This document shows, piece by piece, positions 6,705-52,125 of a stretch of 64,000 bases of DNA. The stretch is from the NCBI GenBank assembly GCA_949292905.1, contig CASFAV010000010.1:5074-69073 (forward strand), given 5' to 3'. Every line of letters starts with the position of its first letter. Within the stretch, counting starts at the first letter, position 1. The position numbers and the translations under genes are program-made. The notes below the pieces were generated by a model. It saw only the letters and a list, made by a program, of their open reading frames with translations. It was not told the DNA's origin and searched no databases. The stretch is from an uncultured Eubacteriales bacterium. Its GTDB lineage: Bacteria > Bacillota > Clostridia > Christensenellales > DTU072.

Positions 6705-6762
6705 GACACGTCTCCTTTGCGTTTTTCGTGATGTACCCGTTAAACACCGCAGGATATGCGTT

Positions 6763-15210: not shown

Positions 15211-15281
15211 GGAAAAAGCGGATTATCATACCCGTCCGCGTTTCATTAAAGGAAATTTATTCATAGGAGGGCAAATGCAAA

Positions 15282-16118: not shown

Positions 16119-16131
16119 GGAGGTAACAGAA

Positions 16132-17139: not shown

Positions 17140-17149
17140 GGAGGCAGAC

Positions 17150-18097: not shown

Positions 18098-18113
18098 AAA
18101 CATTGACTTCTAT

Positions 18114-26618: not shown

Positions 26619-29600
26619 TTACTTGTTGGCAGTAGTGATTTCGATGTATCTCAGGTTGCCCGTGTAGTTCCACGTATACTTCCACAACAATTCCACCGTG
26701 CCGCCCGTCTTCTCGCAATCGGGGGAATATACTGCGTTGTCTCCCGCAAGATCCTCGATGTTTGTGCCGTCGATGTCGTGCGGTACGACAGAAGACACGG
26801 AACCGGTGATACCCACGTAAGTCACGGTAGCTTTTCCGAACAAATATCCCGTAGCGTAGAAATACCAGGTAAATCCGGCTTCGACTTTCCCCGGAGTGTA
26901 TTCTCCCGAACCGCCTCCGCAATATTCCGCCGTGGCGAAATTAGGCGCAGATACGAAATTGGATTCGGCAGAACCTTCGTTATCGCCGTATACGCCGCCC
27001 ATATTTAAGTACTGCATTTCCTGCTTATCGGAGCCGGATTGCACGACGTACACGTAATGGAAGAACTTGATGCCCCACTCGTTCGCGGATATGTTGCCGA
27101 GCGATCCTCCGGCAGCGTTATAGCCTACGCCCGCGGCGATATAGCTCATATTGCTCGTGGCGTCCGACGAACGCCTGTTGAACATAAGTTTACCTACGAA
27201 AGTCGCCGTATTGATCGTCGCCCTGTTATATCCCGCGATACCGCCGATATAAACCGTAGTGCCGTCCGCGAATACGCCGGGCTCGTGCATGGGAGCGTTC
27301 TGTCCGGAAGTGGGCGTATAATAATTACCGTTGTTGGTGATCACTTCGAGCGCCGCGCTGCCGGCATCGTAATTGTTCCCCACGCTGCCCGCGCTGAAAC
27401 TGACGTTGGACACGGTGCCGCTCCAGTTGACGCCCACGATACCGCCGTAACTGCCGCCCGCATATACCGACGAACCTGCGGCACGAGAAGAGTACATCCT
27501 TACCGAAGACGAGACGCTTTCGATAGTGCCGAAGTTGACGCCCACTATTCCGCCCACTATGCTTCCGATATAAGTAACGGTATAGTCGCCCGTGGTGCCC
27601 GCTACGCCGGCGTTTCTGACAATACCGCTATTGTGTCCGGCTATGCCGCCCGCGCCGAGCAGATAAATATTCGTTTCGGTGGGCTCTTTGAAGTTAGCGG
27701 TACCGCTCGCGGTCGCGCTTGCTGAATATATCGTGGCATTCTTGGTAAGCACGAGATAACTGTAGCTCACCACCCTGCGTTGTCCTATCGAGCCGATCAC
27801 GCCGCCTATCGCTATGCCGTTGATAAACGAATTCAATACGGGGTCTATTGCGACCGCGTAGGATACGGCGCGCTGTTCGCTTGTGCCGTCCGCGGACGAA
27901 TCGCCCGCTATCGTACCCGCAATGCCGCCTGCGCCGGTAGAGGATATGACGGTCACCTCTTTCGCATAAGTACCCGCTTCGGGATTGCTCTCCGAAACGC
28001 TCTGCGAGCTCGTCACATATGCGTACAGCCCTATCTGTCCCACTATGCCGCCGGCGCCGCCGGTAAATCCGCTAACTTCGTCGTTCACTGCGCCCGACGC
28101 CGCCGTGAGCGTGATGCCGGTAACGGTCACGTCGACAAGCTCGGTACTGTTGTTCCTGTCCGCGCGGATATAGCCCGCGATACCGCCGACGTTATTATTT
28201 CCGGTAATGCTGTTGCCTATGGAGTTGTCGATAACGTCGACGTTCCTGATGACGGTATTGACCGCTTCGCCCACCAAAGCGCCTACGTTGACGCCGCCCG
28301 TGACGTTCACGCCGGCAAGCACCACGTTTTCTATCACGGCGCCGCTCGAAGTAGCCGCAAATAATCCGACGTTGGTAGCAGAAGACATATAGAGATTCAG
28401 ATTATTGAGCGTGTGTCCGCCTCCGTCGAAATGTCCGTTGAAGCCGCCGGTACGTTCTACGCCGTTCGCGTCGGTGTACGGCGCGCAAAGAGGCGCGAGC
28501 AACGCGTTACCCGGTTCGTTGAGCTCGATATTGGCTATAACTCTGAAATACACTTCTCCGAGTTCTGCGTTACAGCCGCGATGCAGCGCGTCGACGTTCT
28601 TCAAGTGATCTATCGTCGCGATAAGGAAAGGTTCGGACGCGCTTCCTTTGCCCGCGGATTCGTTGTCGCCTTCGGCGAACGGATACTGTTGCAGACTCTC
28701 TAAAGTGACTTCTTGGGCTACGAATTCGATATTTTCGGCTTCCCAAACGTATTGAGTTAAAGTTTTACTGCCGTAGTAAACTATTTTCTGCAGCTTGCTG
28801 AAGCCGTCCGAAGAACCGTTGAAATTGATGCCGAAGCTCGTATAATCGCTCGCTATGGGTCCGTAGCCCGCGAGCAATCTGTTACCGTAATCGCCGGACT
28901 TGACGCCGTCGTAATTGGCGCCGGGAAGTATCGGGATATTCTTGATAGCGATGACGCCGTTCACCGTGCCGTCGCCGTCGAACTCGCCGCCGTCGCTGAT
29001 GTACTTGCCGCCAACGCCGTTCTCGCTGTTATTGTCGCCGATGGCGGTCGCGAGCGTTTCGGGCAGTTTTATCGCGGAGCCCCAGTATACGTTATGCAGT
29101 TCGAGTTCGCCGTAAGCGCTGAAATTGATGCTTACGCGCTTGTTGCGGTTCGCTCTCACGATGACGTACATGGCTTCCATCGCGGCGTTATACCCGTCGG
29201 GATCGGTATGATCGAGAGTCGCGGGAGGCAGGCCGTCCTTACTCAATTCGTAATCTCCGCCCGTCATGAATATATCGTTGTTGTTGTCGTCGTAAACGAT
29301 GACGCTCGAATATCTGTCGAACCTCGGATTGAAGTTGTTAAGATCGTCGGGATTGCCCGTATAACCGGTTTCGAGCATGATCTTTATGCGACTGCCTACG
29401 CGCGCGTCGGTGAGAGTAATGGTACGCTGATCCGTATATGCGTCTCCGGTCACCAAGCGCCAGCCGCCTTCCGCAGTAGCGTCCTCGACGTAATACTTGA
29501 GATACGGAAGCGCTACCGTGAGTCCCGCGGCGGAGCCGGAAAGACTGGCTATCTCGAGCGTTACCGTATATATGCGGATGTATCTTGCGTAGATGACGTA

Positions 29601-32600
29601 AGAGCCGAGCATACGCAGCATGAGCGTTCCCGTCGAGGCGTTGTAATTATAGTAGATCGTCTCCGAAGTGTCCGTTCCGTCGGAATTCTGGATATAATCC
29701 CCTACGTAAGTGATGTTGTCCACGACTTCGTCGGGCAGTCCGCTGTCGGAAGAGGTAAGGTCGAGAGCCTGTCTGCCGCCCGCGCCGCCGTTGTCGACGA
29801 TGTACCAACCCGCGAATTCGTATCCGCTTATCACGGAAGGCAACAGAGTCTGCACCGTTCCGTAATTGAAGCTTCCGTACGACAGGCTCGTGGATTCGAT
29901 CTTGGGCTCCACCATGCCTTCGCCGTCTATAAACAGGCTTTCGTCCTCGATCGCCGTGGACTTGACGAGCTCAAGAGTTTCGACTTTCTGGTAAACGGGA
30001 CGGATTATTATGGCGGGAATGGAGGTGCTGCTCACGTAATTGCCCGCGGTATCGTAATTCGAAGCGTTATAGTAGAAACCCTGATCGACCGTACCGTCGA
30101 ATCTGACGTATGCCGCGTACGAGGTATCGAATAAACAGCTTATCGGGAAATTGAAACTACTGCGCGTCACGACGTTGGTACTGTCGGACGGGTCTACGTA
30201 AGGGATATTCTTCCAGGAATACGAAGTGCCGTCAAAAGCGTAATATTGCCATGACAGGAACCTGTAAGTCGGGGAAGAGGTCTCCCAATACAGCGAAATT
30301 CTGTTATCCGTCCAAGTATTGTACGGGGAATTCGCGCCCGAAACTCCGCTCGTGGCTATCGAATTGAGTTTGCCGAGCATACTGAATGCCTTGTCGGTAT
30401 GTCCGTCCGCGGAAGTAAGCGCCGCCACGTTATACGCGCTCGCATAATACTGCGGCATCGACGAATTGTACGACGCGGCGGTGGCGACCACGGTGCCGGT
30501 ATCGAGATATTCGTTCTCGTACTCGTAGACGTTCTCCACTACCACGTTGTACACCGGTACGAATCTTGCCACGACGTCCACGACGAATTCGGTGACCGCC
30601 GACGTACCGCTGCCCGTCCTTCTTTCGACGATATTCACGCCGTCGGAAAGCCCGTCGAGATCGTTCAATACGAACGCCCCCGTCGTAGTTCCGGGATAAT
30701 ACTGACCGAGTTGCGTATAGCTGTTGACGCCGTTGATGAAGTAGCCCACGAACTGATAATATCTCGACCACTCGCCTTGCGCGGTCAACGACTCGGAGAT
30801 ATAGAACGCGACAGTATCGTTGTAATCGTAAATGCCGTCGGGCGAACTGCCGTCTATGGAGCTGAATTCGATGGAATATTCCGGCTCAATGGTGCTCTCG
30901 TCGGTTACGAACGAAATACTGCCGGTGAGCGTTATCAGTTTGCGGAAGCTTACTTTCAGAATGATGTTTTCCGTGATCTCTTTGACGGTGAGCACCACTT
31001 TCGAGAATCTTCCTTCGAACGAGGGAAGATCGGACGCATACACCACGTTACCGTTCTCGTCGTAATAGGTGAGCGTGACATTGCCGCTCGAGGTGTCGAA
31101 CTGCTCGTAACGGTCGGTAAACTGCCTGTAGCCGTTGGCGTCGGGAACGTCGAGCGAATAGAGATATCCCACGCTCTCGAAGCGGTAACCGCTGTTGGGC
31201 GTCATCGTGATCTGTACGGTGCTTCCCGCCGAAGTCACGAGCGAGTTGTCGCGCAGGCTCGTAACGGTGGCGTTATTGACCACGTAGCTCATGGTGCCGC
31301 CCGCGCCGGACGACGAGGAACCTATCGTTTCCATCGCAAGGCTGACGTACAGGCTGTTGTTGGCGTACGAATATACCGTCTTATCCCCTTCTATCACTTC
31401 GCCGTCGGTGCCGTAGGTGGCGTTCACGGTCGTCTGCGTTCCGCCTTCCGTGACCACATTCTTATAAGAGAAGCTCTGCGTGGCGTTATTGGATATATAC
31501 CTGTCCGCTCCGCGCAGATAGAGCGTCGCTCCGCTTCTTACGTAATACACGTACATCGCGTCGTTCGCGTCGGTGTCGGAATCGGTAAGTATTTCGCGGT
31601 TGCTCGTAAGATCGGGAAGCGGTACGCCGTTGGCGGCGGACTCCGCATATACCGCTTCCGCCGTCATATCGGAATACAGACGGTAAAGCATTTCGGCGGG
31701 GTTGTAAGAAATAAACGAGCCCGAATAATATTTGAATTCGGGATGTATCTCCACCGCCACACGGTACAGACGGAAGAATACGGCGCGGAAAACGCGCGAA
31801 CTCTGAATGACGTATTCCATGACGTAACCGTCCGACATAAGCGTTATGCCGTTGACGCCGTCTCTCACGTACACCCATTGTCCGTCGATATATTCCTGGA
31901 AGCCTTCAAAATTGTATTTATTCGCGCCGTAAGCGGTTATGTTGGCGGTAAATCTCGCACTCGTGCCGTATACGTGCGTCGAACCGGCGGGCTTGTTGTC
32001 GCCGAAAGAAACGCCGATATAGAATTCGCTTTCGTATGCGTTGCCGATCACTTCTGAGCCTTTGTTGGAGCCGTCGTCGGCGGTCACGAGATAATTGGCG
32101 ACGCTGCTGTCGTATTCGTCCTGCGTCACCGAATAATATATCCTCAACGTACTCTTGTTGGCGTCTTCGAAATCCATATATCTCAATATCTCTTCGGTGA
32201 GCATTATACGGATGCTGTCGCCTTTGGCGGAATAAGTGTTGTAGCCGGTGCCCGCGGGCAGACTGATGTTGTCCTTACCTTCGCCGTTCACGCCCACGGC
32301 GTTGCACAGCCAAACGCCGGAAATGCTGTATCCCGCGCTTAACGTGTGAGTGATGACAGCCGCGTTGTCCGCGTCGTAAATGACGCTGTTGTTTTCGAGC
32401 GCCAGCCCGAGAGTGCCGTCGGAAGAATACCACACGCCGCCGTTCTGGACCGCCGCAACGTTATTCACGTAGAATACGACGTTGAAATATTGTCTGCCGT
32501 ATTCCGGCGTGACCGTTATCGAGGTGCGGTTATTGACGAGCGCGGCGTTCACGAGAAGCTTCGTTCCGTCCGCCGCGTCGGTAGTGTAACGATAGCTCGC

Positions 32601-35600
32601 TCCCTGTTTCGAATTCGTGGTGCCCACGGTCTGTCCGTTGACGGTCACCGAACTGAGATAATATCCCGTATCGGAGAGCACGGTGACGCTGAGCGCGTCG
32701 TAATAACTCAACGTGGTCGCGGTATAATCCGTATAACTTCCTCCGGAGCGCGTTTCGTACGTTACTTTATATTGTTTTATCGCGTACGCAACATAGACGT
32801 ACACGTTGCCCGTCACGTTATCTATAGTATACGAACGCATGCCGGTACCGTCGTCCGCGGTAAGTCCCGACGGATCGGAGACGAGCGCTCCGCTCCTGCC
32901 GTCCATGGTTATCGATACGGAAACCACTTCGTAGCCTTCGGGCGGCATGAGCCTTATGGAAAGCTTGTCGTTGAAACGCAATCCTATATATTCGCCGTCG
33001 GGATCGGGTCTGCCGATGAGGGTACCCGAACGAAGGTCGATGCCTCCTGAATCGGAATAGAATTCCCTCTTGATCTGACCGTAAACGTTCTCGTTGATAA
33101 CGGCGCCCGCCACCGCGTTGAGCGTGAATTTCTTGCCGTTACCGTCCGTGATGTCGTACGTTCTGCTGTAGTCGCCGCTGAACGTGACGTCGTAACCTCT
33201 CCTTTCGACGGTCAGTATAACGGAAACGTCGGCGCGTACGTTATATAAGGTGTAAGCTCTGCCGGCGGAGAGGAGCGACAACGCTTCCTGAGAGACTTCC
33301 GAAACGCCGTTCGTTACAAATTCCACCCCGGACAGCACGTATCCCGCGTCGAGCGCATTGCCTACAAGGCTTATGGACGTGGAGTTGCCCCACACTACGG
33401 TTTCGGGCGAAGCGGTTGCCTTACCTCCCTCGAACGCTACGATATTTATGTCGTATGTGTAGACCTTGAACGTCAAATCCGCAACGGCGTCGGACGTAAG
33501 AGTGTATTGGAAAGAGTTTTCGACGCTTCCGTCGGCAACGTTGTAAGGACTGTTGTTGATGACGAATTTGTCTATGCCGTAGCCGGCATCGCCGTAAGAC
33601 GGGATCGCCGCGAATACGAATCGCGTATTATAGGTGGCTGTGATCGCGCCGGTGGACTTGTCTATCCAGATCTTACCGCTCGGCGTGCTCTGCTCGGAAT
33701 ATACGAAGTCGCCCGAAGCGGGAGGAGCCGCCCCGATATCGATAACGGTGACGCTCTTTCTCCAGACGAGATCTCCGAGCTCGTTCATTATGTAATAAGT
33801 GCCGCCCGCATTTGCGTTATATTCGACGGAATAGACGAGGATGCTGTACTGCACCTCGATGAGCAGGTCGGACGAAATGATGGCGGAATAGTTATTCGCT
33901 CTTACCGCGCTCGAACGGTCTTCTCCGTTGACGTTGAATACCGTACGGGAATATCCCGTGCCGGGGTTGACGTTGACGGTGAAGCTCAGTCCGTATTCGT
34001 ATTTGCCGTCCTCGGTGACTACCGTGTCGGAAGCGGAATACGGATTGGCGAAGGTGACGGTCACTCCGGAAGCGCAAAGATACGGCGAACCGAGAGACTC
34101 GGTCGTGAGTCTGTGCTCGTAGGTATACGTTCTGCGCTTGAATTCGACGTTAAGAGCGATTATGTCGGACGACAGCGACTGGAGTATGTAGGAACCGCCG
34201 TCGGGATTGATCGAGGAGGTCAGATTGACGGTGGTATTGGCTCCGTCGCCGTACACCACCTCGAATAACGAGATGTAATATCCGCGGGCAGTGCGCGGAG
34301 CAATCGTGATCCTGACGTTTGCGCCGTGGTTGATCCCTCTGTAAACGTTATCCGCGTCCGCGGTATAGCCGGAGATCGTGACCGTGCCGAAAGTCGTGGG
34401 CGCGACGTCGTAAGAGGCGAAATTGAGACTCTTGTTGGTCGCGTTGACGGCGACGGAATACTCGTTGACAGCATAAGTCACCCTCAGAGTGACGTTGCCT
34501 TCTATGACCGCGGCTTCGAAATATACTTCCGAGAAGTCGTTGACGTTGACCGAAGGATCGAACCAATCGTTATTCACCGTGCCGTTGATGCGCAGTTCTG
34601 AGAGATGATATCCGCTCTCCGCGTTCATCTTGAGCCAGAGCGTGTCGCCGGCTCCGAACGTGACGGTGCGCGCGTCGACGTATGCCGTGGAGGTGCCGTC
34701 GACGGAAACTTTCTTGACATAAGTCACTCCGCCCGCCGATTCCGCTACGGTAACGGTGTATGCGTTGGGCGTAAAGACGATCGCGATGTCCGTGTCGCCG
34801 GTGATTTCCGTGGAAAGGATGCCGGACACGAAATTGTTCGTTTCCGGATCGATGACCGCGCCGAAAAGCGACGAAGCCGCCAATCCGAGACCGTTGATGC
34901 TGACCGAGCCGATATAGTAACCGTCGAACGCGTTAAGGTCGAGGCTGAACGCGGTGCCGTATTCCACGGAGATAGTTTCTCCCGCATACGCGCCGCCTAC
35001 TGTACCGTTGCCGGAATAATCGACGTGCACGTTATATTTTATAGGCGTAAACACGGCGTCTACGGTCACATCGCCGTTCACGTAGCTTTCGGGGACGGTG
35101 TAATCGAACACGCCGCCCGCCGCGGAAACTCCGAGATCGGGGTGATACGTGGCGTTACCTATCACCAAAGTGAACGAAGTGAGCGCATATCCCGTTGAAG
35201 GAATGAATCTTATATCGAAAGAAGTATTCGCGGCAACGCTCGTGACTGTTGTATTGACAATGCCGTGCGTAACGCCGTTGACCGCTATCAAGTATTCTTT
35301 TTCTTCGAATATCGCATAAGCGGACACGTCCGAATTAACGGTCACGGTATAAGTGCCGCCGACGACTTCAACTTCTTGTCCGTTGACGATGAGGGCTTTA
35401 AGCTCGTAGCCGGGTTCCGGAGTAGCGGTGAAAGTTACCTGCGTGCCCTCCGCTACGGGACCCGTAGCGGTCGCGGTGAGCGAACCTTCGCCGACGTGCG
35501 AAACGCTTACCGAAGGTTGGGCGCCGACGGTGGAATCGAGTCTTACGAAGATATCGATCTCGGTGTCTATATCGGAAATGCTGAGCGTGTCGGAGGCGAC

Positions 35601-38600
35601 GAGCGAATACTGTCCTCTCGAATCGGATGGAGTGAAAGCGCCCGTGACCGCCTCGTAGTAATAATCGGTGCCCTCTCTGTTGACGACTCTGACGCCGTCG
35701 GCGGAAACGGTCTTGCCGCCGAGCGTGAACTGCACGTTAAGAGTGCTTCCGAAAACGAGTTCGCCGTTGTACGTGAGCATCTTGCCGTCGTAGGAAGGCT
35801 GCGCCGACACGTCGAAGCCGTCTATCTTTATAGAAGCGCCGCTGTCGGTGCCGAGCAGGTAAACGGTATAGCCGAGCTCGATATATACGAAAGTGACCGA
35901 AACTTCATAATCTTTGGAGAGATCGTCGATCCTGAAAGTGTGCGAAGTCGCGCGGTAACCTATTATCTCCGAGACAGTCGCTCCGTCCGCTACGGAAGTG
36001 AACGAAACGGCGTTGACGTAATAGCCTTCGGGAGCCGTTACCGTGAATTCGGCGTTGGTGCCGGTGGAGATATCCGCGAAAGTGCGTCCCTGCATGCCGT
36101 ACGGGTAAGAAACGCCGTTATAAAGTATGCTCGCGCCGTTGTCGTCCGCTCCGGTACCGCTCAGGAAAGAAACGATATGCGTAGATCTCGAGAAACTGAA
36201 TATCACGTCGTAATCCTTCTTCACGCCGTTCACGGTAAACACCTGCGAAGAATTCATATCACTGTAATTCATTTTTTCGCCGTTGACGGTGAGCGCCGCG
36301 ACGTAATATTCCGTGACCGTCTCGGCAAGGACATTGACCGTGGCGCCGTAATCGACTACGGAGCTCGCGCTTACGCTTCCCACGCCTTCGGCGGCGGTAT
36401 TTATGTAATAATATATAGGCGCGATATCCACTTCGAATACGATATCGCGATAGATGCCGTCCACGGTAAGGGTGAACGAAGTCACGCGGGAGTCGTATTC
36501 GCCGTCGATCGCGGCTTCGCCGTTCACGAGAACGTCGTCGATCATGTAATCTTCCGAAGTGAAGTACGGATCCACTATGCTGCCGTTAGCGCGCAAAGCG
36601 CGGATATAATATCCTTCGTCCGCGCCGACATAGAAAACGGGACTCTCGCCGCCGTTGTACTGCGTGACCGAAGCGGCGGCTTCGATATAGCCGTGCTCGA
36701 GCGAAGACGACGACGGGAGCGTGACGGAATAGGTGGTCTCGTTATACACCACGGTCACCACTCTGTCGGCGGATATGCGGTCAATGACAAGAGTGTAATA
36801 GACGGCTCCCTGCGGGACTGCGCTCTGAACGCCGTTGACGGAAACAGAGGATATGAAATAATTCGCGGGCGCGGAGATCTCGAGATTCACGCTCACGCCG
36901 TCGTCCGCGCGGAAAGCGAAGTTGACGTCGGAAGAGGTCTGCTTGAGAGCTTCGCTCGCTCCGGCAACGTTGTAAGTTATCGATCCCGCGGCGAGCGAGG
37001 AGCCGTTCACGACGGCTATCTCGTACTGCGAGAGAGAGAAGGTCACGTGCAGATAATAATCGGAAGCTATCACGGCGGGTATGACCGTTTCGTAATACGC
37101 GCCTGCGTCGATGAGCTCGTTAGAGATATCCTCTCCGTTGAGTTCCGCTCCCGTCACGCCGTAATCGGTGCCGGGACGGATGCGTATGACGAAATCCTCG
37201 GTAACGGGCATCTGCACTTCTCCCGCGACGACTTTTTCTTCGTATTCTTCGTATTGCTCGTTGTATTCGAGGTAATACACGTTGCCGGAGCCTTCGGCAT
37301 TGACGATGAGTTTACGGGTATTGACTTCGAATACGGGCACGAAATAGGCTATCTCTTTGTCGATCTTGTAATTTCTGTCGATGACGTAATCGGTGGGCTG
37401 CATCGCGTCGTCCGCGAGATACCAGCCTTTGAACGTATAATTCTCGCGAACGGGCAAAGTCTCGGGGAAAGTTCCCGAGAGAGCTCCCGCAAGGCTGTCC
37501 TGATAATAGACCTCGAGCACCCTGCCGCCCAGCTCTTCGTCGTAGCCCGTCGCGGGATCGGTGAACGACGCGTCCTCGTTATCCCCTTTCAGGAATACGG
37601 CGAGGAAAATGCGTTTTTCCCAGTAAGCCACGAGCTCGGTGGGACGGGTAAATACGGCGTCGTTGGTAAGGAGCGCGGGAGAACCGTCGGGATTGTAAGG
37701 ATTGTCGGCGTCGTACCAGCCCTTGAATTCGTAGCCGGTAGCGACGAGCTTGGTAAGGTCCTCGACGTCGAATATCTCCCCTATCGGAGTACCGTAAGGA
37801 AGTACCAGCGGCTCGAATACCGAAGCCGACATGCTCGAGAAAGATATCTCGCTTTCTTCGTAAACGAAATTGGCTTTGAGATATATCTCGTTGACGTTTG
37901 GACGCAGATCGTTATCCTGCGGCGGGGTGAACGCGAGGACGTATTCCTCGCTCGTTCCCGTCTGAGAAGTACGGAACGAAACGTAATTGTCTTCCGCGAG
38001 TTCCACGGTTATCTCGTCGTCTTTTATCTCGAGCTCGATACAGTTCCCGGAAACGTCGCGCACCGACCAGCCCACGAAATCCATACCGGCGTTGGCGGTG
38101 ATACGGAGCACCGCTTCGGTACCCTTCGGATAATACGCCATGAGATCTTGTATCTTACCGAGAGCGACGCCCTCTCTGTCGGTGGTGAATTCGACGAAAA
38201 GATCGGTTGCGTTCTTCTCGAAAATGGGATAGATGTTGGTATCCTTGGTGATGCTCGTGTAATCGGTATCCCAGCCCACGAAAGTATAGCCGTAAAGTTG
38301 CATGTTATGTTCGTCGGGGCGCGGAACCCTCGTGGGGGATTGACCGTAAGGCACTATCTCCTCTCTCGCCGTGGTTCCGTCGGGATAATAGAACACGACG
38401 GTATAATTCATTTTGCGGAAAACGGCTATGAGCTTGGTGGATTTGCTTATTTTCGTATCCATACGGCTCGCACTGCTGTATCCGTCGCTCCAGCCGTCGA
38501 AATAATAACCTTCGTTGGGTATGGCTTCCACTCTCGTGGCGTCCGCGCCGGCGGTAACGTGCTGTAAAGTTTCTCCGTCTATCCGACCGCCCGTGCTGGG

Positions 38601-39023
38601 AACGTACTCAACGGTGAGCGTGGTGGGCACGACGTTGTACGTGACCGTCTGCTTGAATCCGCCGAAATCGAGCACGACGTTGTCTACGGTACCTTCCTCG
38701 GAAGTGTCCAGACCTTCCACGACGAGTTCGGAGAGCGCGACTTTCTCCGAAGAACCGTCGCTGTACTTGACGGTCACGAATACTTGGGTAAGATCGGCAT
38801 TGACGCTTATCTGCCCTTCGTTGTCGAGGACTATGGCTTCGACGTCGGGACGACGGTAACCGCCGTTCGCTCTTTCCGCGCCCTCGTGCCCTTCCACCAT
38901 GCCCGGCAGGATCGCCGCCGCAAGAGCTAAGGAAACGACGGCTATAGCGAAAACGACTATCAGACTGATGCCGAAAATGCTTTTTCGCGTATAACGCTTA
39001 CCCGAAATTCTGTATTTTGCCAT
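26619..39023 (-). CDS. giant (4,134 aa) membrane-anchored cell-surface repeat protein: Listeria-Bacteroides / divergent InlB-B-repeat modules plus a C-terminal GLUG beta-helix region
   Basis: - It is an uninterrupted 12,405-nt ORF with an AAGGAG RBS.
- The N-terminus has a basic stretch and one TM helix (IFGISLIVVFAIAVVSLALAAAIL).
- Canonical repeats include EGYYFDGWSDG...KLIAVF, YGYTFVGWDTDY...IYPIF, GYEFKGWYDADNPYNPDG and YTFKGWYLADD.
- A long series of roughly 90-100-aa modules follows, of the type ...PEPGYELKALIVNGQEV...YAIFEEKEY.
- The last about 680 aa (26619..~28650) begin EPFLIATIDHLKNV.
- That region carries many GLUG-type motifs (GALVGE, GGIAGY, GGIVGQ, GAGGIAGT, IGGVIGS, GGIVGVN, IGGIAGYN). 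Confidence 0.9.
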   Translation of the reverse strand: MAKYRISGKRYTRKSIFGISLIVVFAIAVVSLALAAAILPGMVEGHEGAERANGGYRRPDVEAIVLDNEGQISVNADLTQVFVTVKYSDGSSEKVALSELVVEGLDTSEEGTVDNVVLDFGGFKQTVTYNVVPTTLTVEYVPSTGGRIDGETLQHVTAGADATRVEAIPNEGYYFDGWSDGYSSASRMDTKISKSTKLIAVFRKMNYTVVFYYPDGTTAREEIVPYGQSPTRVPRPDEHNMQLYGYTFVGWDTDYTSITKDTNIYPIFEKNATDLFVEFTTDREGVALGKIQDLMAYYPKGTEAVLRITANAGMDFVGWSVRDVSGNCIELEIKDDEITVELAEDNYVSFRTSQTGTSEEYVLAFTPPQDNDLRPNVNEIYLKANFVYEESEISFSSMSASVFEPLVLPYGTPIGEIFDVEDLTKLVATGYEFKGWYDADNPYNPDGSPALLTNDAVFTRPTELVAYWEKRIFLAVFLKGDNEDASFTDPATGYDEELGGRVLEVYYQDSLAGALSGTFPETLPVRENYTFKGWYLADDAMQPTDYVIDRNYKIDKEIAYFVPVFEVNTRKLIVNAEGSGNVYYLEYNEQYEEYEEKVVAGEVQMPVTEDFVIRIRPGTDYGVTGAELNGEDISNELIDAGAYYETVIPAVIASDYYLHVTFSLSQYEIAVVNGSSLAAGSITYNVAGASEALKQTSSDVNFAFRADDGVSVNLEISAPANYFISSVSVNGVQSAVPQGAVYYTLVIDRISADRVVTVVYNETTYSVTLPSSSSLEHGYIEAAASVTQYNGGESPVFYVGADEGYYIRALRANGSIVDPYFTSEDYMIDDVLVNGEAAIDGEYDSRVTSFTLTVDGIYRDIVFEVDIAPIYYYINTAAEGVGSVSASSVVDYGATVNVLAETVTEYYVAALTVNGEKMNYSDMNSSQVFTVNGVKKDYDVIFSFSRSTHIVSFLSGTGADDNGASILYNGVSYPYGMQGRTFADISTGTNAEFTVTAPEGYYVNAVSFTSVADGATVSEIIGYRATSHTFRIDDLSKDYEVSVTFVYIELGYTVYLLGTDSGASIKIDGFDVSAQPSYDGKMLTYNGELVFGSTLNVQFTLGGKTVSADGVRVVNREGTDYYYEAVTGAFTPSDSRGQYSLVASDTLSISDIDTEIDIFVRLDSTVGAQPSVSVSHVGEGSLTATATGPVAEGTQVTFTATPEPGYELKALIVNGQEVEVVGGTYTVTVNSDVSAYAIFEEKEYLIAVNGVTHGIVNTTVTSVAANTSFDIRFIPSTGYALTSFTLVIGNATYHPDLGVSAAGGVFDYTVPESYVNGDVTVDAVFTPIKYNVHVDYSGNGTVGGAYAGETISVEYGTAFSLDLNAFDGYYIGSVSINGLGLAASSLFGAVIDPETNNFVSGILSTEITGDTDIAIVFTPNAYTVTVAESAGGVTYVKKVSVDGTSTAYVDARTVTFGAGDTLWLKMNAESGYHLSELRINGTVNNDWFDPSVNVNDFSEVYFEAAVIEGNVTLRVTYAVNEYSVAVNATNKSLNFASYDVAPTTFGTVTISGYTADADNVYRGINHGANVRITIAPRTARGYYISLFEVVYGDGANTTVNLTSSINPDGGSYILQSLSSDIIALNVEFKRRTYTYEHRLTTESLGSPYLCASGVTVTFANPYSASDTVVTEDGKYEYGLSFTVNVNPGTGYSRTVFNVNGEDRSSAVRANNYSAIISSDLLIEVQYSILVYSVEYNANAGGTYYIMNELGDLVWRKSVTVIDIGAAPPASGDFVYSEQSTPSGKIWIDKSTGAITATYNTRFVFAAIPSYGDAGYGIDKFVINNSPYNVADGSVENSFQYTLTSDAVADLTFKVYTYDINIVAFEGGKATASPETVVWGNSTSISLVGNALDAGYVLSGVEFVTNGVSEVSQEALSLLSAGRAYTLYNVRADVSVILTVERRGYDVTFSGDYSRTYDITDGNGKKFTLNAVAGAVINENVYGQIKREFYSDSGGIDLRSGTLIGRPDPDGEYIGLRFNDKLSIRLMPPEGYEVVSVSITMDGRSGALVSDPSGLTADDGTGMRSYTIDNVTGNVYVYVAYAIKQYKVTYETRSGGSYTDYTATTLSYYDALSVTVLSDTGYYLSSVTVNGQTVGTTNSKQGASYRYTTDAADGTKLLVNAALVNNRTSITVTPEYGRQYFNVVFYVNNVAAVQNGGVWYSSDGTLGLALENNSVIYDADNAAVITHTLSAGYSISGVWLCNAVGVNGEGKDNISLPAGTGYNTYSAKGDSIRIMLTEEILRYMDFEDANKSTLRIYYSVTQDEYDSSVANYLVTADDGSNKGSEVIGNAYESEFYIGVSFGDNKPAGSTHVYGTSARFTANITAYGANKYNFEGFQEYIDGQWVYVRDGVNGITLMSDGYVMEYVIQSSRVFRAVFFRLYRVAVEIHPEFKYYSGSFISYNPAEMLYRLYSDMTAEAVYAESAANGVPLPDLTSNREILTDSDTDANDAMYVYYVRSGATLYLRGADRYISNNATQSFSYKNVVTEGGTQTTVNATYGTDGEVIEGDKTVYSYANNSLYVSLAMETIGSSSSGAGGTMSYVVNNATVTSLRDNSLVTSAGSTVQITMTPNSGYRFESVGYLYSLDVPDANGYRQFTDRYEQFDTSSGNVTLTYYDENGNVVYASDLPSFEGRFSKVVLTVKEITENIILKVSFRKLITLTGSISFVTDESTIEPEYSIEFSSIDGSSPDGIYDYNDTVAFYISESLTAQGEWSRYYQFVGYFINGVNSYTQLGQYYPGTTTGAFVLNDLDGLSDGVNIVERRTGSGTSAVTEFVVDVVARFVPVYNVVVENVYEYENEYLDTGTVVATAASYNSSMPQYYASAYNVAALTSADGHTDKAFSMLGKLNSIATSGVSGANSPYNTWTDNRISLYWETSSPTYRFLSWQYYAFDGTSYSWKNIPYVDPSDSTNVVTRSSFNFPISCLFDTSYAAYVRFDGTVDQGFYYNASNYDTAGNYVSSTSIPAIIIRPVYQKVETLELVKSTAIEDESLFIDGEGMVEPKIESTSLSYGSFNYGTVQTLLPSVISGYEFAGWYIVDNGGAGGRQALDLTSSDSGLPDEVVDNITYVGDYIQNSDGTDTSETIYYNYNASTGTLMLRMLGSYVIYARYIRIYTVTLEIASLSGSAAGLTVALPYLKYYVEDATAEGGWRLVTGDAYTDQRTITLTDARVGSRIKIMLETGYTGNPDDLNNFNPRFDRYSSVIVYDDNNNDIFMTGGDYELSKDGLPPATLDHTDPDGYNAAMEAMYVIVRANRNKRVSINFSAYGELELHNVYWGSAIKLPETLATAIGDNNSENGVGGKYISDGGEFDGDGTVNGVIAIKNIPILPGANYDGVKSGDYGNRLLAGYGPIASDYTSFGINFNGSSDGFSKLQKIVYYGSKTLTQYVWEAENIEFVAQEVTLESLQQYPFAEGDNESAGKGSASEPFLIATIDHLKNVDALHRGCNAELGEVYFRVIANIELNEPGNALLAPLCAPYTDANGVERTGGFNGHFDGGGHTLNNLNLYMSSATNVGLFAATSSGAVIENVVLAGVNVTGGVNVGALVGEAVNTVIRNVDVIDNSIGNSITGNNNVGGIAGYIRADRNNSTELVDVTVTGITLTAASGAVNDEVSGFTGGAGGIVGQIGLYAYVTSSQSVSESNPEAGTYAKEVTVISSTGAGGIAGTIAGDSSADGTSEQRAVSYAVAIDPVLNSFINGIAIGGVIGSIGQRRVVSYSYLVLTKNATIYSASATASGTANFKEPTETNIYLLGAGGIAGHNSGIVRNAGVAGTTGDYTVTYIGSIVGGIVGVNFGTIESVSSSVRMYSSRAAGSSVYAGGSYGGIVGVNWSGTVSNVSFSAGSVGNNYDAGSAALEVITNNGNYYTPTSGQNAPMHEPGVFADGTTVYIGGIAGYNRATINTATFVGKLMFNRRSSDATSNMSYIAAGVGYNAAGGSLGNISANEWGIKFFHYVYVVQSGSDKQEMQYLNMGGVYGDNEGSAESNFVSAPNFATAEYCGGGSGEYTPGKVEAGFTWYFYATGYLFGKATVTYVGITGSVSSVVPHDIDGTNIEDLAGDNAVYSPDCEKTGGTVELLWKYTWNYTGNLRYIEITTANK

Positions 39024-39253: not shown

Positions 39254-41242
39254 TTATTTTTTTCGTTTCCACCCCGTCTTGACGGTTTGCCTGGATCTGG
39301 CTATGCAGAGCGCTTCCGGGGGCACGTTTTCCGTGACCGTGCTCCCTCCCGCGATATAAGCTCCGTCTCCAACCTCCACGGGAGCTATCAGGTTGGCGTT
39401 GCAGCCGATGAAAACCTCTTTGCCCACTCGCGTGGTCTGCTTGACGGAACCGTTATAATTGGCGAAAACGGTGCCGCAACCGACGTTGGTCCTTTCTCCC
39501 ACTTCCGCGTCGCCTATATAAGCGAGATGAGCCGCTTTGACTCCGTCGGCAAGCACGGAGTTTTTCACTTCCACGAAGTCGCCTACCCTGCAACCGTCCC
39601 CTATGACCGCGCCTTTACGCAGACAGGCGAACGGTCCAACGGTAGTACGCGCGCCTATCCTCGCGCCTATGGCGTAAACGGAACGCAGATCGGAATTGTC
39701 CCCCACCACGGTATCGGTAATGTCGGTAAAAGAATATATCTTTACGTTCTCGCCTATCACGCACCTTCCCTGAAGAACGCACATCGGATAAATCACCGTG
39801 CCCGCGCCTATTACGCATTCTTCGTCGATATACGTCGTCGCGGGATCCGTCACGCGCACGCCGCGCGCCGTGAGCGCGGCGAGAATACTTTTGCGTTTTT
39901 CGTCGTTAAGGTAACCCAAACAATTATATTCGGTTGATTTATTTTCACTTTTTGCGTTGACGTAAGCGTCCACGAAATCACGCACCTTATCCAGTATTTC
40001 ACGCGCTTTCTCGTACCGCTCCGCTTCCGCCATAAGCCTTATTTTAGGCTCGGTGCCGCTCGCTCTCGCTATTATCCTCCCGGGAAACTCCGCGCGCGTT
40101 TTTTCGATGAAACTCTTTACTTGCTCGTCGTCGAAACGCCCGATACCCTCCGCGTCCGTGTCGATATTGCAGGAAGCCGACGGATATTCGACGCGGTCGT
40201 CGAGGTTCTCGAGTCCCCTCTCGCGCTCGACTACGCACATAATGAGCGAGGTGAGCAAGCCGTCGCCGGTATTCTGATACGCTCTGAAAATAAGATGACC
40301 GCTCGCTTCTCCGCCTATCAGAGCGCCTTCTTCGATCATCGCTTCGCTGACGTATTTGTCGCCCACGGGAGTGCGCCTGAACGATATCCCGTTACGCCTG
40401 AACGACAGCTCGGTGCCCATATTGGTCATCACGGTACCCACCGCCGCAGGCGGTGAAAGCACCCCCTTTTCCGCAAAATACCGCGCCGCCACGTACAGCA
40501 TGGCGTCGCCGTCGTAAAGCTTGCCGTTTTTCACGCACATCACTCTGTCGCCGTCGCCGTCGAAGGTGAACCCTATGTCGTACTCGCCGTTTTTCATCGC
40601 CTCGAGCAGCTTTTCCGGATGAGTCGCGCCGCAATCCACGTTGATGCGTTCGCCGTCGGTCTCTGCGTTTATAACGACGGGTATCGCACCGAGTCGGGAA
40701 TACAGCTTCTCCGCTATCGCCGACACAGCGCCGTTGGCGGCGTCCAGCAACACTCTCATCCCTTTAACGGAAGGCGCCACCCGCGCGGCGAAATGGGCGC
40801 AGTATTCGTCGCTTCCGTCCACGCTCAGCGTTTCGCCGCGCTCTTTTTCGGGAGGAGCGGCAGCGTCGATGGCGGCTTCCAGCTCCCTTTCCTCGTCCGT
40901 GGTTATTTTCGCGCCGTCGCGCGAGAAGAATTTTATACCGTTGTATTCGGGCGGATTGTGGGAAGCCGAAATCATCGCCCCGAGCCCCGCGCCGTAGGAA
41001 CGCGTGAGATATGCCAGCACCGGCGTGGGGATCATGCCCGCGTCTATCACTCTCAGACCGCACGCGCTCCACGCGGCGGCGAGCGTATTCGCGATTCTCT
41101 CCCCGCTTCTTCTCGTATCCCTGCCGATCACAACGGAGATCCTGCCGTATCTTGCCACGACAGCCCAGGCGATTTTCTCAAGGAAATCGACCGTGAAAAT
41201 TTTTTCGTTCCCTCTTATCCCGTCTGTACCGAAATATTTCAT
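39254..41242 (-). CDS. glmM: fusion protein: phosphoglucosamine mutase (GlmM) plus GlmU-type GlcN-1-P N-acetyltransferase (LbH) domain
   Basis: 662 aa.
- Residues 1 to about 445 are GlmM-like: MKYFGTDGIRG, the catalytic SASHNPPEYNGIKFF, GFTFDGDGDR, GGEASGH and RASGTEPKIRLMAE.
- Residues about 455-662 align in my reading with the C-terminal half of GlmU. Matching stretches are GPFACLRKGAVIGDGCRVGDFVEVKNS, AAHLAYIGDAEVG, NVGCGTVFANYNG, FIGCNANLIAPV and SRQTVKTGWKRKK.
- No nucleotidyltransferase domain is present. Confidence 0.85.
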   Translation of the reverse strand: MKYFGTDGIRGNEKIFTVDFLEKIAWAVVARYGRISVVIGRDTRRSGERIANTLAAAWSACGLRVIDAGMIPTPVLAYLTRSYGAGLGAMISASHNPPEYNGIKFFSRDGAKITTDEERELEAAIDAAAPPEKERGETLSVDGSDEYCAHFAARVAPSVKGMRVLLDAANGAVSAIAEKLYSRLGAIPVVINAETDGERINVDCGATHPEKLLEAMKNGEYDIGFTFDGDGDRVMCVKNGKLYDGDAMLYVAARYFAEKGVLSPPAAVGTVMTNMGTELSFRRNGISFRRTPVGDKYVSEAMIEEGALIGGEASGHLIFRAYQNTGDGLLTSLIMCVVERERGLENLDDRVEYPSASCNIDTDAEGIGRFDDEQVKSFIEKTRAEFPGRIIARASGTEPKIRLMAEAERYEKAREILDKVRDFVDAYVNAKSENKSTEYNCLGYLNDEKRKSILAALTARGVRVTDPATTYIDEECVIGAGTVIYPMCVLQGRCVIGENVKIYSFTDITDTVVGDNSDLRSVYAIGARIGARTTVGPFACLRKGAVIGDGCRVGDFVEVKNSVLADGVKAAHLAYIGDAEVGERTNVGCGTVFANYNGSVKQTTRVGKEVFIGCNANLIAPVEVGDGAYIAGGSTVTENVPPEALCIARSRQTVKTGWKRKK

Positions 41243-41291
41243 AAATCCTCCGAACGGGACATTTTATTCAGAAAACGTTCGGCGCGTTACC

Positions 41292-41321
41292 GAAAAAAAC
41301 GGACGGCGCCGAGCCGTCCGT
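41292..41321 (-). terminator. rho-independent terminator after mtnN
   Basis: The minus strand reads acggacggc-tcggc-gccgtccgt followed by ttttttt. Confidence 0.8.
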
Positions 41322-41353: not shown

Positions 41354-42016
41354 TTATCTGCCGCGCGTCGCGGCGACGGCTTCGAGCGCGGCGCGCGCGT
41401 TGATACGGCAGGCTTTCTCCGCAAATTCCTCGTAACCTGTTTCGGCGCCGTCTTCCGCGCCGTCGCTAACGACTTTCAGGGCGGCGAAAGGCACTCCCGC
41501 CGCGGCGCAAGCCTGAGCCACGGCGGCACATTCCATATCGCAGAGCGACGCGCCGAAAGTTTCCGCTATATTACGCGCCTTTCCCGCGTCCGCGATAAAA
41601 GAGTCGCCCGTCGCTATCACGGCCGTTCTCGCCCCGTTTACGGCTTTCATCAGGGTAGCAGTGAGTGCGGCGTCGCTTCTGCCGCAATACTTCCCAGCGG
41701 CTTCGCCGAAAGCCGTGAGATCGAAGTCGTGTTGCCACGCTTCGCTGACGACGGCGACGTCTCCCTGCGACAGAACGCCCAATCCGCCCGCTATCCCGGT
41801 ATTTATGACGGCTTCGGGAGAGTATCGCATCAAGGTAACGGCGGTCGTATACGCCGCCGCGACTTTACCTATACCGGCTTCCGCTACCACGACGTCCGTT
41901 CCGCGATAACTTCCGATAAAGAATTTTATGCCCGAATACTCTTCGCACACGCAGCCTTCAAGCTCGGAAGTTATGTATTTCCTCTCTTTCTCCATCGCGA
42001 CGATGACCGCTATCAT
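41354..42016 (-). CDS. mtnN: 5'-methylthioadenosine/S-adenosylhomocysteine nucleosidase
   Basis: 220 aa. It carries IAVIVAMEKE, GIGKVAAAYTTAVTL, INTGIAGGL and DMECAAVAQAC, typical of Pfs/MtnN. Confidence 0.85.
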   Translation of the reverse strand: MIAVIVAMEKERKYITSELEGCVCEEYSGIKFFIGSYRGTDVVVAEAGIGKVAAAYTTAVTLMRYSPEAVINTGIAGGLGVLSQGDVAVVSEAWQHDFDLTAFGEAAGKYCGRSDAALTATLMKAVNGARTAVIATGDSFIADAGKARNIAETFGASLCDMECAAVAQACAAAGVPFAALKVVSDGAEDGAETGYEEFAEKACRINARAALEAVAATRGR

Positions 42017-42020
42017 ACGC

Positions 42021-43070
42021 TTACTCCGCTTGCGCTACGTCGTCCGCCGTGTAGGTGATCAGGGTGAGGAAGTGATCGCCGAGCCCCGCGTTGCCGTACC
42101 GCTCGCTGCCGGCAGTCACTTCGTCGCCGTTCTGTACGGATGCGGTGCCTATCCTGCCGAGATTGTTGATGACCGAAGCGAAAGCTTTCAGGATTTCGGC
42201 GTTTATGTCGTTTTTGTCGCTTACGTCTATCGCGTCGGCGTTATCGCCCGCCGCGTCCGCCGCGCTGTCGGCAAGGACTGCGAATATCGCGTCTGCGACG
42301 GCATTCTCTACGTCGTTGACGCGGATATCCTGCGGAACGGTAACAAGCCTGCCCTCTCCGTCCGCGGAGATCGTAGCGTAACTCACTATGTATATCCTGT
42401 CGGGGATCTTGATCAATGACTGCGGGATTTTCGCATCCGCCAAAGCGTTTTTGAGTTCATCCTGCAAGGTCTCGAGCGAAATGCTCGCCACTATACGCAG
42501 AGTATACCCGTTGCCGCTTGCGCTTATCGTCACTTCGTTGACGTTAGCGTTTATGTCGCGAAGGAACTTGACGCCCGTGGAATCGGGATCGCCTTCCGCT
42601 TCGACACCATTTTCGGCGGAAGATATCATCGAGTCGAACATATACGCCAGGGTGGTGTCGAGATAACGTTTAAGATATACTTTGTCGTAAACGACTTTTC
42701 CGCTCACGGCAGAAGAAAAATCGTAACTTCCGTCCTCTTTGAGGATACTGCTGTTGGCGGCGTTGCTCTGCGCGGCGGGTTTATCGGTCGATTCGTCGAA
42801 ACGGTTGGTGATTATCTTGTCTTCGTCGGGATTCATTATTTCCTTGAAAAGCTTGACCGCTTCTTTGAGTTTGACGTCGGCAAGTCCGTAATCGCGCAAA
42901 GTCTTGCCGCCCAGGAAGTCGAACGCTATATCCGCTATGCCGAGCCGATCGGGCGTCATATTAAGAACGACAGCCACGGATACGCCGATAAGCACCACGA
43001 CGAGCAGTACTATGATCAATATCGTCAAACAACAACCTTTAAGGCATTTCGGGGTTGCAGGCTGAGCCAT
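42021..43070 (-). CDS. hypothetical N-terminally membrane-anchored extracytoplasmic protein
   Basis: About 349 aa from M6, which has a GGAGGAA RBS; the track ORF starts at 43085. It has one TM helix (CCLTILIIVLLVVVLIGVSVAVVL). I recognise no family. It ends 4 nt before mtnN. Confidence 0.6.
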   Translation of the reverse strand: MAQPATPKCLKGCCLTILIIVLLVVVLIGVSVAVVLNMTPDRLGIADIAFDFLGGKTLRDYGLADVKLKEAVKLFKEIMNPDEDKIITNRFDESTDKPAAQSNAANSSILKEDGSYDFSSAVSGKVVYDKVYLKRYLDTTLAYMFDSMISSAENGVEAEGDPDSTGVKFLRDINANVNEVTISASGNGYTLRIVASISLETLQDELKNALADAKIPQSLIKIPDRIYIVSYATISADGEGRLVTVPQDIRVNDVENAVADAIFAVLADSAADAAGDNADAIDVSDKNDINAEILKAFASVINNLGRIGTASVQNGDEVTAGSERYGNAGLGDHFLTLITYTADDVAQAE

Positions 43071-43116
43071 AATCCATTCCTCCATAAACGATTATTTTGC
43101 ACACGCTCAATGTCCG

Positions 43117-51396: not shown

Positions 51397-52125
51397 ATGA
51401 TAGTTATTCAGACAAGCAGTTACGAAGAACTGAGTCGTAAAGCCTACGAGCTGATGCGCCCCGTGCTCATCGAAAAGCCCGACGCGGTACTCGGACTCGC
51501 CACCGGTTCCAGCCCTATCGGACTATATAAAGAAATGATCGCCGACTATAAAGCAGGCAACGTGAGCTATAAAAAAATGATATCGATAAATCTCGACGAA
51601 TACGCCGATCTGCCCGTGGAGCATCCCGAGAGTTACCGCAGCTTCATGAACCGCAATCTTTTCGACCATATAGATATAGATAAAGCGAACACCCACGTTC
51701 CCGACGGACTCGCCGCCGACAAGGAAGCCGCCTGCAACGAATACACCGCGTTTGCCGCAGCGCATCCCATCGACGTACAGATACTCGGTATCGGCGCGAA
51801 CGGACACATCGGCTTCAACGAACCCGGTACCTCCTTCGACGCGCACACCCACCTCGTGGAGCTCAAAGAAGGCACCCGTCGCGACAACGCACGCTTCTTC
51901 GACAACGATATCGACAAAGTACCCACTCACGCGGTGACGCTGGGACTAGCGGACATCATGCAGGCGAAAATGATCATACTCATCGCCAACGGAACCGCGA
52001 AGGCGGAAGCCGTGAGACGCATGATACAGGGTCCCGTGGACACCGCCTGCCCCGCCAGCGTGCTCCAGACTCACCCCTGCGTGTACGTCGTCGTAGACGA
52101 AGCGGCAGGATACTACGTCAAATAA
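51397..52125 (+). CDS. nagB: glucosamine-6-phosphate deaminase
   Basis: 242 aa. It carries VLGLATGSSP, INLDEY and LGIGANGHIGFNEPGTSF. Confidence 0.9.
   Translation: MIVIQTSSYEELSRKAYELMRPVLIEKPDAVLGLATGSSPIGLYKEMIADYKAGNVSYKKMISINLDEYADLPVEHPESYRSFMNRNLFDHIDIDKANTHVPDGLAADKEAACNEYTAFAAAHPIDVQILGIGANGHIGFNEPGTSFDAHTHLVELKEGTRRDNARFFDNDIDKVPTHAVTLGLADIMQAKMIILIANGTAKAEAVRRMIQGPVDTACPASVLQTHPCVYVVVDEAAGYYVK

Follow-up and report, generated by a model that had tools for sequence, protein, structure and literature searches.

What kind of enzyme is encoded by a gene that joins a complete phosphoglucosamine mutase (GlmM) to only one half of GlmU, and what became of the other half? The question is raised by an open reading frame (ORF) in a 64,000-nucleotide stretch of contig CASFAV010000010.1 (assembly GCA_949292905.1, positions 5,074 to 69,073) from an uncultured Eubacteriales bacterium, referred to as a whole as the window. 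The ORF occupies 39254..41242 on the minus strand and is unbroken over 662 residues. The reading preferred here, to which a probability of roughly 0.85 can be attached, is that its product is a bifunctional GlmM–acetyltransferase enzyme, that uridylylation takes place separately, and that the gene originated by decay of the N-terminal uridylyltransferase domain of GlmU and subsequent fusion of the remainder to glmM.

Architecture of the fused gene

The product consists of a GlmM module (residues 1-430), a disordered linker (431-446), and the helical arm and left-handed beta-helix of GlmU (447-662). The features of the gene are as follows.

39254..41242, minus strand: fusion gene, 662 residues plus stop codon (ORF list, domain matches, 33-member alignment)
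39953..41242, minus strand: GlmM module, residues 1-430, four PGM/PMM domains (Pfam, TIGR01455, PDB, AlphaFold2)
40961..40963, minus strand: codon of the catalytic phosphoserine S94 (SASHNP), invariant in 33 of 33 family members
40544..40561, minus strand: metal-binding loop D228-G-D-G-D-R233, invariant, present in 125 of 125 fused proteins
40295..40312, minus strand: sugar-binding loop G311-E-A-S-G-H316, with E312, S314, G315 and H316 invariant
40037..40066, minus strand: domain IV phosphate-binding loop R393-ASGTEPKI-R402, with R393, S395, G396, T397, E398 and R402 invariant
39905..39952, minus strand: inter-domain linker AKSENKSTEYNCLGYL, residues 431-446, AT-rich, predicted to be disordered
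39866..39904, minus strand: remnant of the GlmU helical arm NDEKRKSILAALT, residues 447-459 (GlmU profile starts, AlphaFold2 helix, alignment)
39254..39865, minus strand: left-handed beta-helix of the predicted glucosamine-1-phosphate (GlcN-1-P) N-acetyltransferase, residues 460-662 plus stop codon (Hexapep, GlmU model NF010934, PDB)
39440..39619, minus strand: acetyltransferase active-site stretch R542...K601 (alignment to Escherichia coli GlmU; residues invariant in the family)

In the mutase half, Pfam places all four PGM_PMM domains (I-IV) at residues 2-422, the NCBIfam glmM model TIGR01455 covers residues 4-425 (391 bits, E=6e-117), and the GlmM structure 6gyz matches residues 2-425 at 1.8e-81. 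The C-terminal third contains four Hexapep repeats, and thirteen GlmU models match the protein, all of them only from about model position 229 to 447, which corresponds to residues 442-662; examples are NF010934 (260 bits, residues 442-659) and, among structures, GlmU 9dqf (2.8e-57). NF010934 and TIGR01173 fall below their whole-protein cut-offs (259.7 against 450 bits and 248.4 against 366.85), which is no surprise for a protein that contains just half of what they model. GlmM and GlmU C-terminal profiles do not overlap on the ORF in Pfam, NCBIfam or PDB searches, and in the last of these, GlmM structures cover residues 2-430, GlmU structures cover residues 444-661 only, and no solved chain spans both halves. 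GlmU profile positions 1-228 have no match anywhere on the protein, and the uridylyltransferase domain and its GxGTR(M) loop are thus absent. The sequence-only reading of this locus, in which GlmM is joined in frame to the acetyltransferase half of GlmU alone, is borne out by all three resources, and the SASHNP, GDGDR and GEASGH motifs that it listed are present and invariant across the 33 aligned family members.

The acetyltransferase half also retains its active site. In an alignment to E. coli GlmU (reference sequence identical to PDB 1hv9), R542, E558, K560, H572, Y575, N586, N595 and K601 correspond to E. coli R333, E349, K351, H363, Y366, N377, N386 and K392, and the equivalent of R440 is likewise conserved. 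The position of E. coli S405 is occupied by cysteine, as it is in the nearest full-length GlmUs. Upstream of the beta-helix, residues 447-459 align with the helical arm of E. coli GlmU, the GlmU profiles begin to match at their positions 229-232, and AlphaFold2 predicts a helix, the counterpart of that arm. The same model contains two confident domains, with a mean predicted local distance difference test score (pLDDT) of 84.7 and values mostly above 85 in the GlmM module, joined by residues 432-445 at pLDDT below 50, which points to a disordered linker.

The G+C content at the junction is 0.29 (residues 431-447), compared to 0.58 and 0.56 in the two domains. An AT-rich fusion seam had been proposed at this position; the base composition stands, while the seam appears to be a flexible linker. 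An origin as foreign DNA or a mobile insertion was considered and rejected, since all relatives encode a similar K/N/E-rich linker there. The linker in the window is rich in K, N and E, and those of the family are 19-28 residues long, variable, and rich in K, N, E, T and Q. To judge by composition, this segment is a flexible linker akin to the K/E-rich N-terminal tail of an ancestral gene encoding only the acetyltransferase, and it adjoins the site where stop and start codons once overlapped.

Recurrence of the fusion and its probable origin from separate genes

In a first homology search, dozens of clusters (formed at 90% identity) proved to have this architecture; they stem from independent assemblies in ENA, Logan and NCBI, and their identities range from 92% to about 36%. 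Clusters P0001-P0005 share 80-100% identity with the window protein and represent approximately 119 member sequences. Among 33 proteins of this domain order at 44-92% identity, the catalytic elements of both halves are invariant, and the junction is always in frame and varies by substitution; on this alignment, the catalytic residues of both modules are shown to be under purifying selection. HMMER, run exhaustively over 1.84 billion representatives, gave 4,916 strong GlmM-like matches; about 14 of them, counted as representatives at 50% identity, are fused. The cluster representatives collected comprise 58 in which GlmM precedes the acetyltransferase, 65 in which it follows, and 2 in which it precedes a full-length GlmU. 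Catalytic motifs are kept in nearly all of these 125 fused representatives, a minimum for the number that exist, and SASHNP is kept in 123 of 125. All of the fused proteins are from uncultured Clostridia, and all members derive from metagenomes or metagenome-assembled genomes (MAGs), including CALVOD01, GCA_965353945.1 and GCA_965317525.1. A scan of a genome collection with the fusion protein mostly returned ordinary glmM, whose EYNGIKFF pattern is ubiquitous, along with one fused locus (L003).

Proteins of the opposite order, here termed order B (P0036, P0042, P0045 with 2,857 member sequences, P0049 and P0066), have the acetyltransferase at the N-terminus and GlmM at the C-terminus, with only 5-8 residues between them. 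A simple neighbor-joining tree built from acetyltransferase domains includes nine order-B representatives, which fall together in one clade outside the group that contains the window-type fusions, stand-alone acetyltransferase proteins and the nearest full-length GlmUs. This separation indicates that order B arose independently, and that GlmM and the acetyltransferase were joined at least twice, in opposite orders. Within the group that includes the window protein, fused and stand-alone proteins are interleaved, which may reflect repeated events or noise. The genomic setting of order B also differs: P0036 (loci L083 and L084) lies within a polysaccharide-synthesis cluster encoding a Wzy_C polymerase, a Polysacc_synt flippase, a GT4 glycosyltransferase, EpsG, two LicD proteins, GlmS and a PglF-like dehydratase. 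The trifunctional proteins, P0351 (886 residues) and P0485 (895 residues), combine GlmM (residues 4-431) with a complete GlmU (residues 437-884) that scores 530 bits, above the cut-off of 450. They are singleton clusters at 47% identity, and each is found on a short metagenomic contig. GlmM has additional partners: a sizeable family of about 534-540 residues (P0548, P0551 and P0553-P0589) carries an extra helix-turn-helix domain (Pfam HTH_3, HTH_19 or HTH_31) and would combine a mutase with a DNA-binding domain; several of its members are labelled simply "phosphoglucosamine mutase".

The origin of the window-type fusion may be traced through relatives in which the two genes are separate. The acetyltransferase half has its nearest relatives among proteins from Clostridia MAGs that stand alone, are 215-250 or 325-345 residues in length, and match the C-terminal part of GlmU only. 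Many of them are on contigs equal in length to those of the stand-alone GlmMs nearest to the mutase half, which paired the two genes. Their loci have the gene order of the window, namely an ATP-binding cassette (ABC) transporter, two Big_2 genes, a gene of no assigned family, mtnN, glmM, the acetyltransferase gene and a giant Flg_new protein, but with glmM and the acetyltransferase gene separate. The corresponding neighbors in the window are these.

26619..39023, minus strand: giant ORF of 4134 residues, directly downstream of the fusion gene (Flg_new/Flg_new_2 on homologues)
41354..42016, minus strand: mtnN, methylthioadenosine/S-adenosylhomocysteine nucleosidase, upstream of the fusion gene (TIGR01704, 122 bits against a cut-off of 74)

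In L089 the separate genes lie 11 nt apart. The overlap amounts to 1 nt in L091, 4 nt in L095 and 8 nt in L092-L094, where glmM ends in GGC AAT GTG TAA and the acetyltransferase gene starts with ATG TGT AAA GAA. The N-terminal tail of the short acetyltransferase-only protein (MCKEKKPEN...) resembles the fusion linkers (KSENKSTEYN..., NKIKEKVPEYE...) in being rich in K and E. The gene upstream of glmM is conserved as well, with mtnN at the same position in L001, L088, L089, L091, L092 and L095. In three of these loci (L089 6719-8563, L091 6845-8698, L095 6832-8706), a gene of 614-624 residues lies between mtnN and glmM, and its CoA_binding_3 and Polysacc_synt_2 domains suggest a PglF/CapD-like UDP-sugar 4,6-dehydratase. 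No dehydratase-like gene is found between mtnN and glmM in the window or in the loci closest to it, L001, L088 and L092.

The stand-alone acetyltransferase proteins form a size series of 392, 331-336, 274 and 229-234 residues, and no GlmU profile recognizes the N-terminal extension of the three longer classes. Aligned to E. coli GlmU and two nearby full-length GlmUs, this extension retains the LYxDxPL motif of GlmU, including D105, and lacks the GxGTR nucleotide loop, K25, N169, N227 and the entire 170-225 region. The nucleotidyltransferase had earlier been described as omitted; its absence is confirmed, while the size series and the residual motif indicate that it eroded in place before the fusion. 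Based on this series and on the synteny of the split genes, it is proposed that the GlmU uridylyltransferase first became dispensable and that the domain then eroded in place to nothing. The surviving acetyltransferase gene, directly 3' of glmM with overlapping stop and start codons, would have become translationally coupled, and loss of the boundary would have fused the two. Decay in place also suggests that another enzyme had already taken over uridylylation, and that the domain was not split off as a gene of its own.

Proposed function, the uridylyltransferase step and rival explanations

In the proposed mechanism, the GlmM module would convert glucosamine-6-phosphate (GlcN-6-P) to GlcN-1-P via phosphoserine S94, with Mg2+ held by D228, D230 and D232. 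The beta-helix module would then use acetyl-CoA to convert GlcN-1-P to N-acetylglucosamine-1-phosphate (GlcNAc-1-P), with H572 as the general base and R542 and K560 gripping the sugar phosphate. Fusion would fix a 1:1 ratio of the two enzymes and co-localize them around their shared intermediate, GlcN-1-P, which to our knowledge has no other use. Substrate channeling, as suggested in the sequence-only reading, may follow from this arrangement, and GlmM dimers joined to beta-helix trimers could assemble into hexamers.

The last step toward UDP-GlcNAc (UDP-N-acetylglucosamine) appears to be encoded elsewhere. Pfam and NCBIfam scans of 51 window ORFs, which were judged to be probable genes from the set with 150 residues or more, detect no uridylyltransferase, no scanned ORF of at least 150 residues matches Pfam UDPGP, and a phmmer search with the verified N-terminal domain of E. 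coli GlmU finds nothing in the window. Verified human UAP1, used as a tblastn query, matches neither the window nor any of 92 loci (1.59 Mb in total). The expectation that a separate uridylyltransferase acts afterwards therefore holds within the scope covered, as neither the window nor the flanks of related loci contain one. On the preferred reading, the final uridylylation must fall to another enzyme, with a gene of its own and no descent from the fusion gene. Staphylococcus aureus makes most of its UDP-GlcNAc via the UAP1-like enzyme NagU (Fong et al., bioRxiv 10.64898/2026.06.23.733835, June 2026 preprint), which is sporadic in Clostridia; in many NagU-bearing species GlmU is truncated to one domain, and some species lack any full-length GlmU (Fong et al.). 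By analogy, a NagU/UAP1-like uridyltransferase is the leading and most likely candidate for the last step, and GlmR/YvcK is another reported accessory uridyltransferase. It would be a long shot that the clade, having lost the GlmU uridylyltransferase, relies on an enzyme that is neither GlmU, NagU/UAP1 nor GlmR/YvcK, and that GlmM dimers and beta-helix trimers form a defined higher-order particle for channeling GlcN-1-P. The window also contains a gene for an inorganic pyrophosphatase at 60690..61220, minus strand (PF00719, E=9e-58); the missing step releases pyrophosphate, and no linkage is implied.

Several points weigh against a bifunctional enzyme with uridylylation supplied in trans. The activities of the fusion protein are assigned from its sequence. 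The TIGR01455 score of the mutase half is below the equivalog cut-off of 447.55, and its substrate specificity is thus deduced from motifs and best matches, although glmM remains the best family for it by more than 100 bits and its PDB matches are to GlmMs at 1e-81, compared to 1e-32 for phosphomannomutases and phosphoglucomutases. Uridylyltransferases of the GlmU N-domain type or the UAP1/NagU type are absent both from the 64-kb window and from the flanks of up to 10 kb around its relatives. In GlmU structures, the acetyltransferase site is presumably located toward the C-terminal end of the beta-helix, while the mutase here is attached at the N-terminal end, and a direct channel is not obvious. 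Stoichiometry and co-localization are consequently safer claims than a physical channel. Judged by the same structural analogy, order-B fusions place GlmM directly beside the acetyltransferase site, and the order in the window does not.

If the fused ORF were an artefact, an assembly or sequencing error would have joined an adjacent glmM and acetyltransferase-only glmU through a missed stop codon or frameshift, and in sister lineages where the two genes overlap by only 1-8 nt, a single indel would suffice. The same fused ORF with equal linker length is nevertheless found in independent ENA, Logan and NCBI assemblies, it is kept in relatives down to 44% identity, and at least 125 fused cluster representatives exist. 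No stop codon or frameshift, the possibility raised in the sequence-only reading, occurs at the junction, whose layout is the same wherever the fused ORF recurs in the many independent assemblies; the artefact explanation is scarcely credible and can be considered effectively refuted. The idea that indels switch a single lineage back and forth between the fused and the split state was also considered, for P0164 and P0012, and rejected: the P0164 scaffold has no glmM and carries unrelated upstream DNA. This acetyltransferase-only protein (L097 1-1469, ENA ERZ16268200 scaffold_1913) has an N-terminus nearly identical to the linker of the fused P0012, and its scaffold is either a rearrangement or a chimera rather than a frameshift. 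It is also very improbable that the C-terminal beta-helix is that of a hexapeptide acyltransferase of some other kind, whose substrate would be something else, for example a nucleotide sugar. Hexapeptide-repeat folds are widespread, the generic Pfam Hexapep model matches this half, and the Hexapep_GlmU model is below its own cut-off (18.3 against 23.3 bits). However, full-length GlmU models score 200-260 bits across it, compared to at most 72 for NeuD/PglB, LpxD, LpxA and DapD, so the comparison with non-GlmU hexapeptide enzymes that had been suggested as a check favors GlmU (260 bits, against 72 for NeuD/PglB and 53 for LpxD). The sugar-1-phosphate-binding residues of E. coli GlmU (R333, K351, K392, Y366, N377 and E349) and the catalytic H363 are all retained, and the nearest full-length relatives are true GlmUs above the cut-off of 450 (P0241, 548 bits; P0266, 510 bits).

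The remaining rival accepts the fusion and its chemistry but not its role. The protein could be a specialized paralogue serving a surface glycan, while a canonical glmM and a full-length glmU elsewhere in the genome serve peptidoglycan. Its gene always adjoins that of the giant surface protein, it comes after a PglF-like UDP-sugar 4,6-dehydratase in sister lineages, and order-B fusions reside in polysaccharide clusters (Wzy, flippase, glycosyltransferases, LicD, GlmS). The data cover 64 kb of the genome, and a second, canonical glmU or glmM could lie elsewhere, which also counts against the preferred reading. Erosion of the uridylyltransferase in the orthologous gene, with invariant acetyltransferase residues, is instead what would be expected of the working acetyltransferase of the cell; were it a redundant paralogue, both halves would probably have been lost. 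Species without any full-length GlmU are, moreover, known (Fong et al.). The paralogue explanation is unlikely on this balance.

Neighborhood, known systems and significance

The context described in the sequence-only reading, with a giant surface-protein gene on one side and a surface-protein/ABC cluster and nagB on the other, agrees with the ORF list and family matches. Further elements near the fusion gene are listed here.

41247..41251, minus strand: ribosome-binding site GGAGG, 6 nt 5' of the ATG (sequence inspection)
41299..41321, minus strand: terminator-like hairpin and T-run between mtnN and the fusion gene (consensus scan)
51397..52125, plus strand: nagB, GlcN-6-P deaminase, which acts on the predicted substrate of the fusion enzyme (TIGR00502, 278 bits against a cut-off of 237)

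The hairpin has a 9-bp stem with 7 G-C pairs and is followed by TTTTTTT. The Flg_new/Flg_new_2 (Listeria-Bacteroides repeat) domains are seen on homologues of the giant ORF in related loci, and the position of this gene is kept in relatives down to 48% fusion-protein identity, as well as in the split-gene lineages. Plus-strand ORFs of up to 1100 residues (for example 35265..38567) are antisense to the 4134-residue ORF and wholly inside it, and are taken to be by-products of GC-rich composition. Big_2 and ABC genes are found upstream of the fusion gene, and at the cut end of L088 a Glucosamine_iso (PF01182) gene has the divergent orientation to the ABC cluster that is also seen in the window. 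The gene at 42021..43085, minus strand (354 residues), occupies the place of an unannotated ORF of 311-349 residues between the Big_2 genes and mtnN in relatives, a correspondence of position only. It is one of several ORFs of 294-412 residues (in 15261..18103, 61922..63160 and 42021..43085, all minus strand) with no Pfam or NCBIfam match. Farther away, 371..1669, minus strand, encodes a 432-residue protein with a full-length match to the serpins (PF00079, E=1.6e-38), which are uncommon in bacteria, and 5187..8777, minus strand, contains two tandem genes for RsgI-like anti-sigma factors (505 and 495 residues) after one for a sigma factor of the extracytoplasmic function type (176 residues).

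Compared to canonical GlmM and bifunctional GlmU (E. coli, PDB 1hv9/2oi5; GlmM 6gyz, 7ojr), the fusion shares the chemistries, folds and catalytic residues, and even the helical arm before the beta-helix. It differs in that the mutase takes the place of the uridylyltransferase domain on the chain, the latter being absent, and in that both halves are below the curated equivalog cut-offs. The trifunctional P0351 and P0485 also have GlmM N-terminal to GlmU but retain a complete uridylyltransferase domain. The truncated GlmU of NagU-bearing bacteria (10.64898/2026.06.23.733835) is likewise only the acetyltransferase half, with another uridyltransferase thought to finish the pathway. It is, however, a stand-alone protein, whereas the acetyltransferase in the window is in frame with GlmM, and stand-alone GlmU C-terminal proteins ("DapH/DapD/GlmU-related protein") are the sister state of the fusion in L089, L091, L092 and L095. 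E. coli GlmM and an acetyltransferase-only GlmU together rescue Capnocytophaga canimorsus and are sufficient in this bacterium, which has a GlcNAc-1-P uridyltransferase apart from them (Renzi et al. 2015, PMC4358021); that system consists of two separate engineered proteins in a Bacteroidetes host, while the fusion is natural. The eukaryotic GNA1/AGM1/UAP1 route resembles the proposed scheme in that its last step, uridylylation of GlcNAc-1-P, falls to a monofunctional enzyme distinct from the acetyltransferase. In that route GlcN-6-P is acetylated first and then mutated, whereas the fusion keeps GlmM- and GlmU-type enzymes and the bacterial order, with the mutase before acetylation of the 1-phosphate.

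The words "fusion" and "fused" do not occur in the preprint of Fong et al., which does not mention a GlmM fusion, and no description of a natural GlmM-GlmU fusion was found in the literature, only engineered constructs for co-expression of glmM and glmU. In public records, the fusion proteins are labelled "hypothetical protein [Clostridia bacterium]" or "phosphoglucosamine mutase [Eubacteriales bacterium]", annotations that can now be corrected. New are the fusion as such, the fact that it recurs in both orders, and the record of its origin; the chemistry, the folds and truncated GlmU were known. A compact two-step enzyme for GlcNAc-1-P may also be of use to metabolic engineers, who routinely co-express glmM and glmU.

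The bifunctional GlmU is usually regarded as universal and essential, and as a target for antibiotics. On the reading preferred here, a whole clade, probably gut- or digester-associated, would have dismantled it, keeping the acetyltransferase, fusing it to the preceding enzyme of the pathway and discarding the uridylyltransferase. That GlmM and the GlmU acetyltransferase act as a unit is signalled, in classic "Rosetta stone" fashion, by their having fused twice independently, in opposite orders, and the decay series provides an unusually clear stepwise record of pathway rewiring. The fusion would also complement the 2026 NagU finding, in that it marks lineages where an alternative uridyltransferase must be essential.

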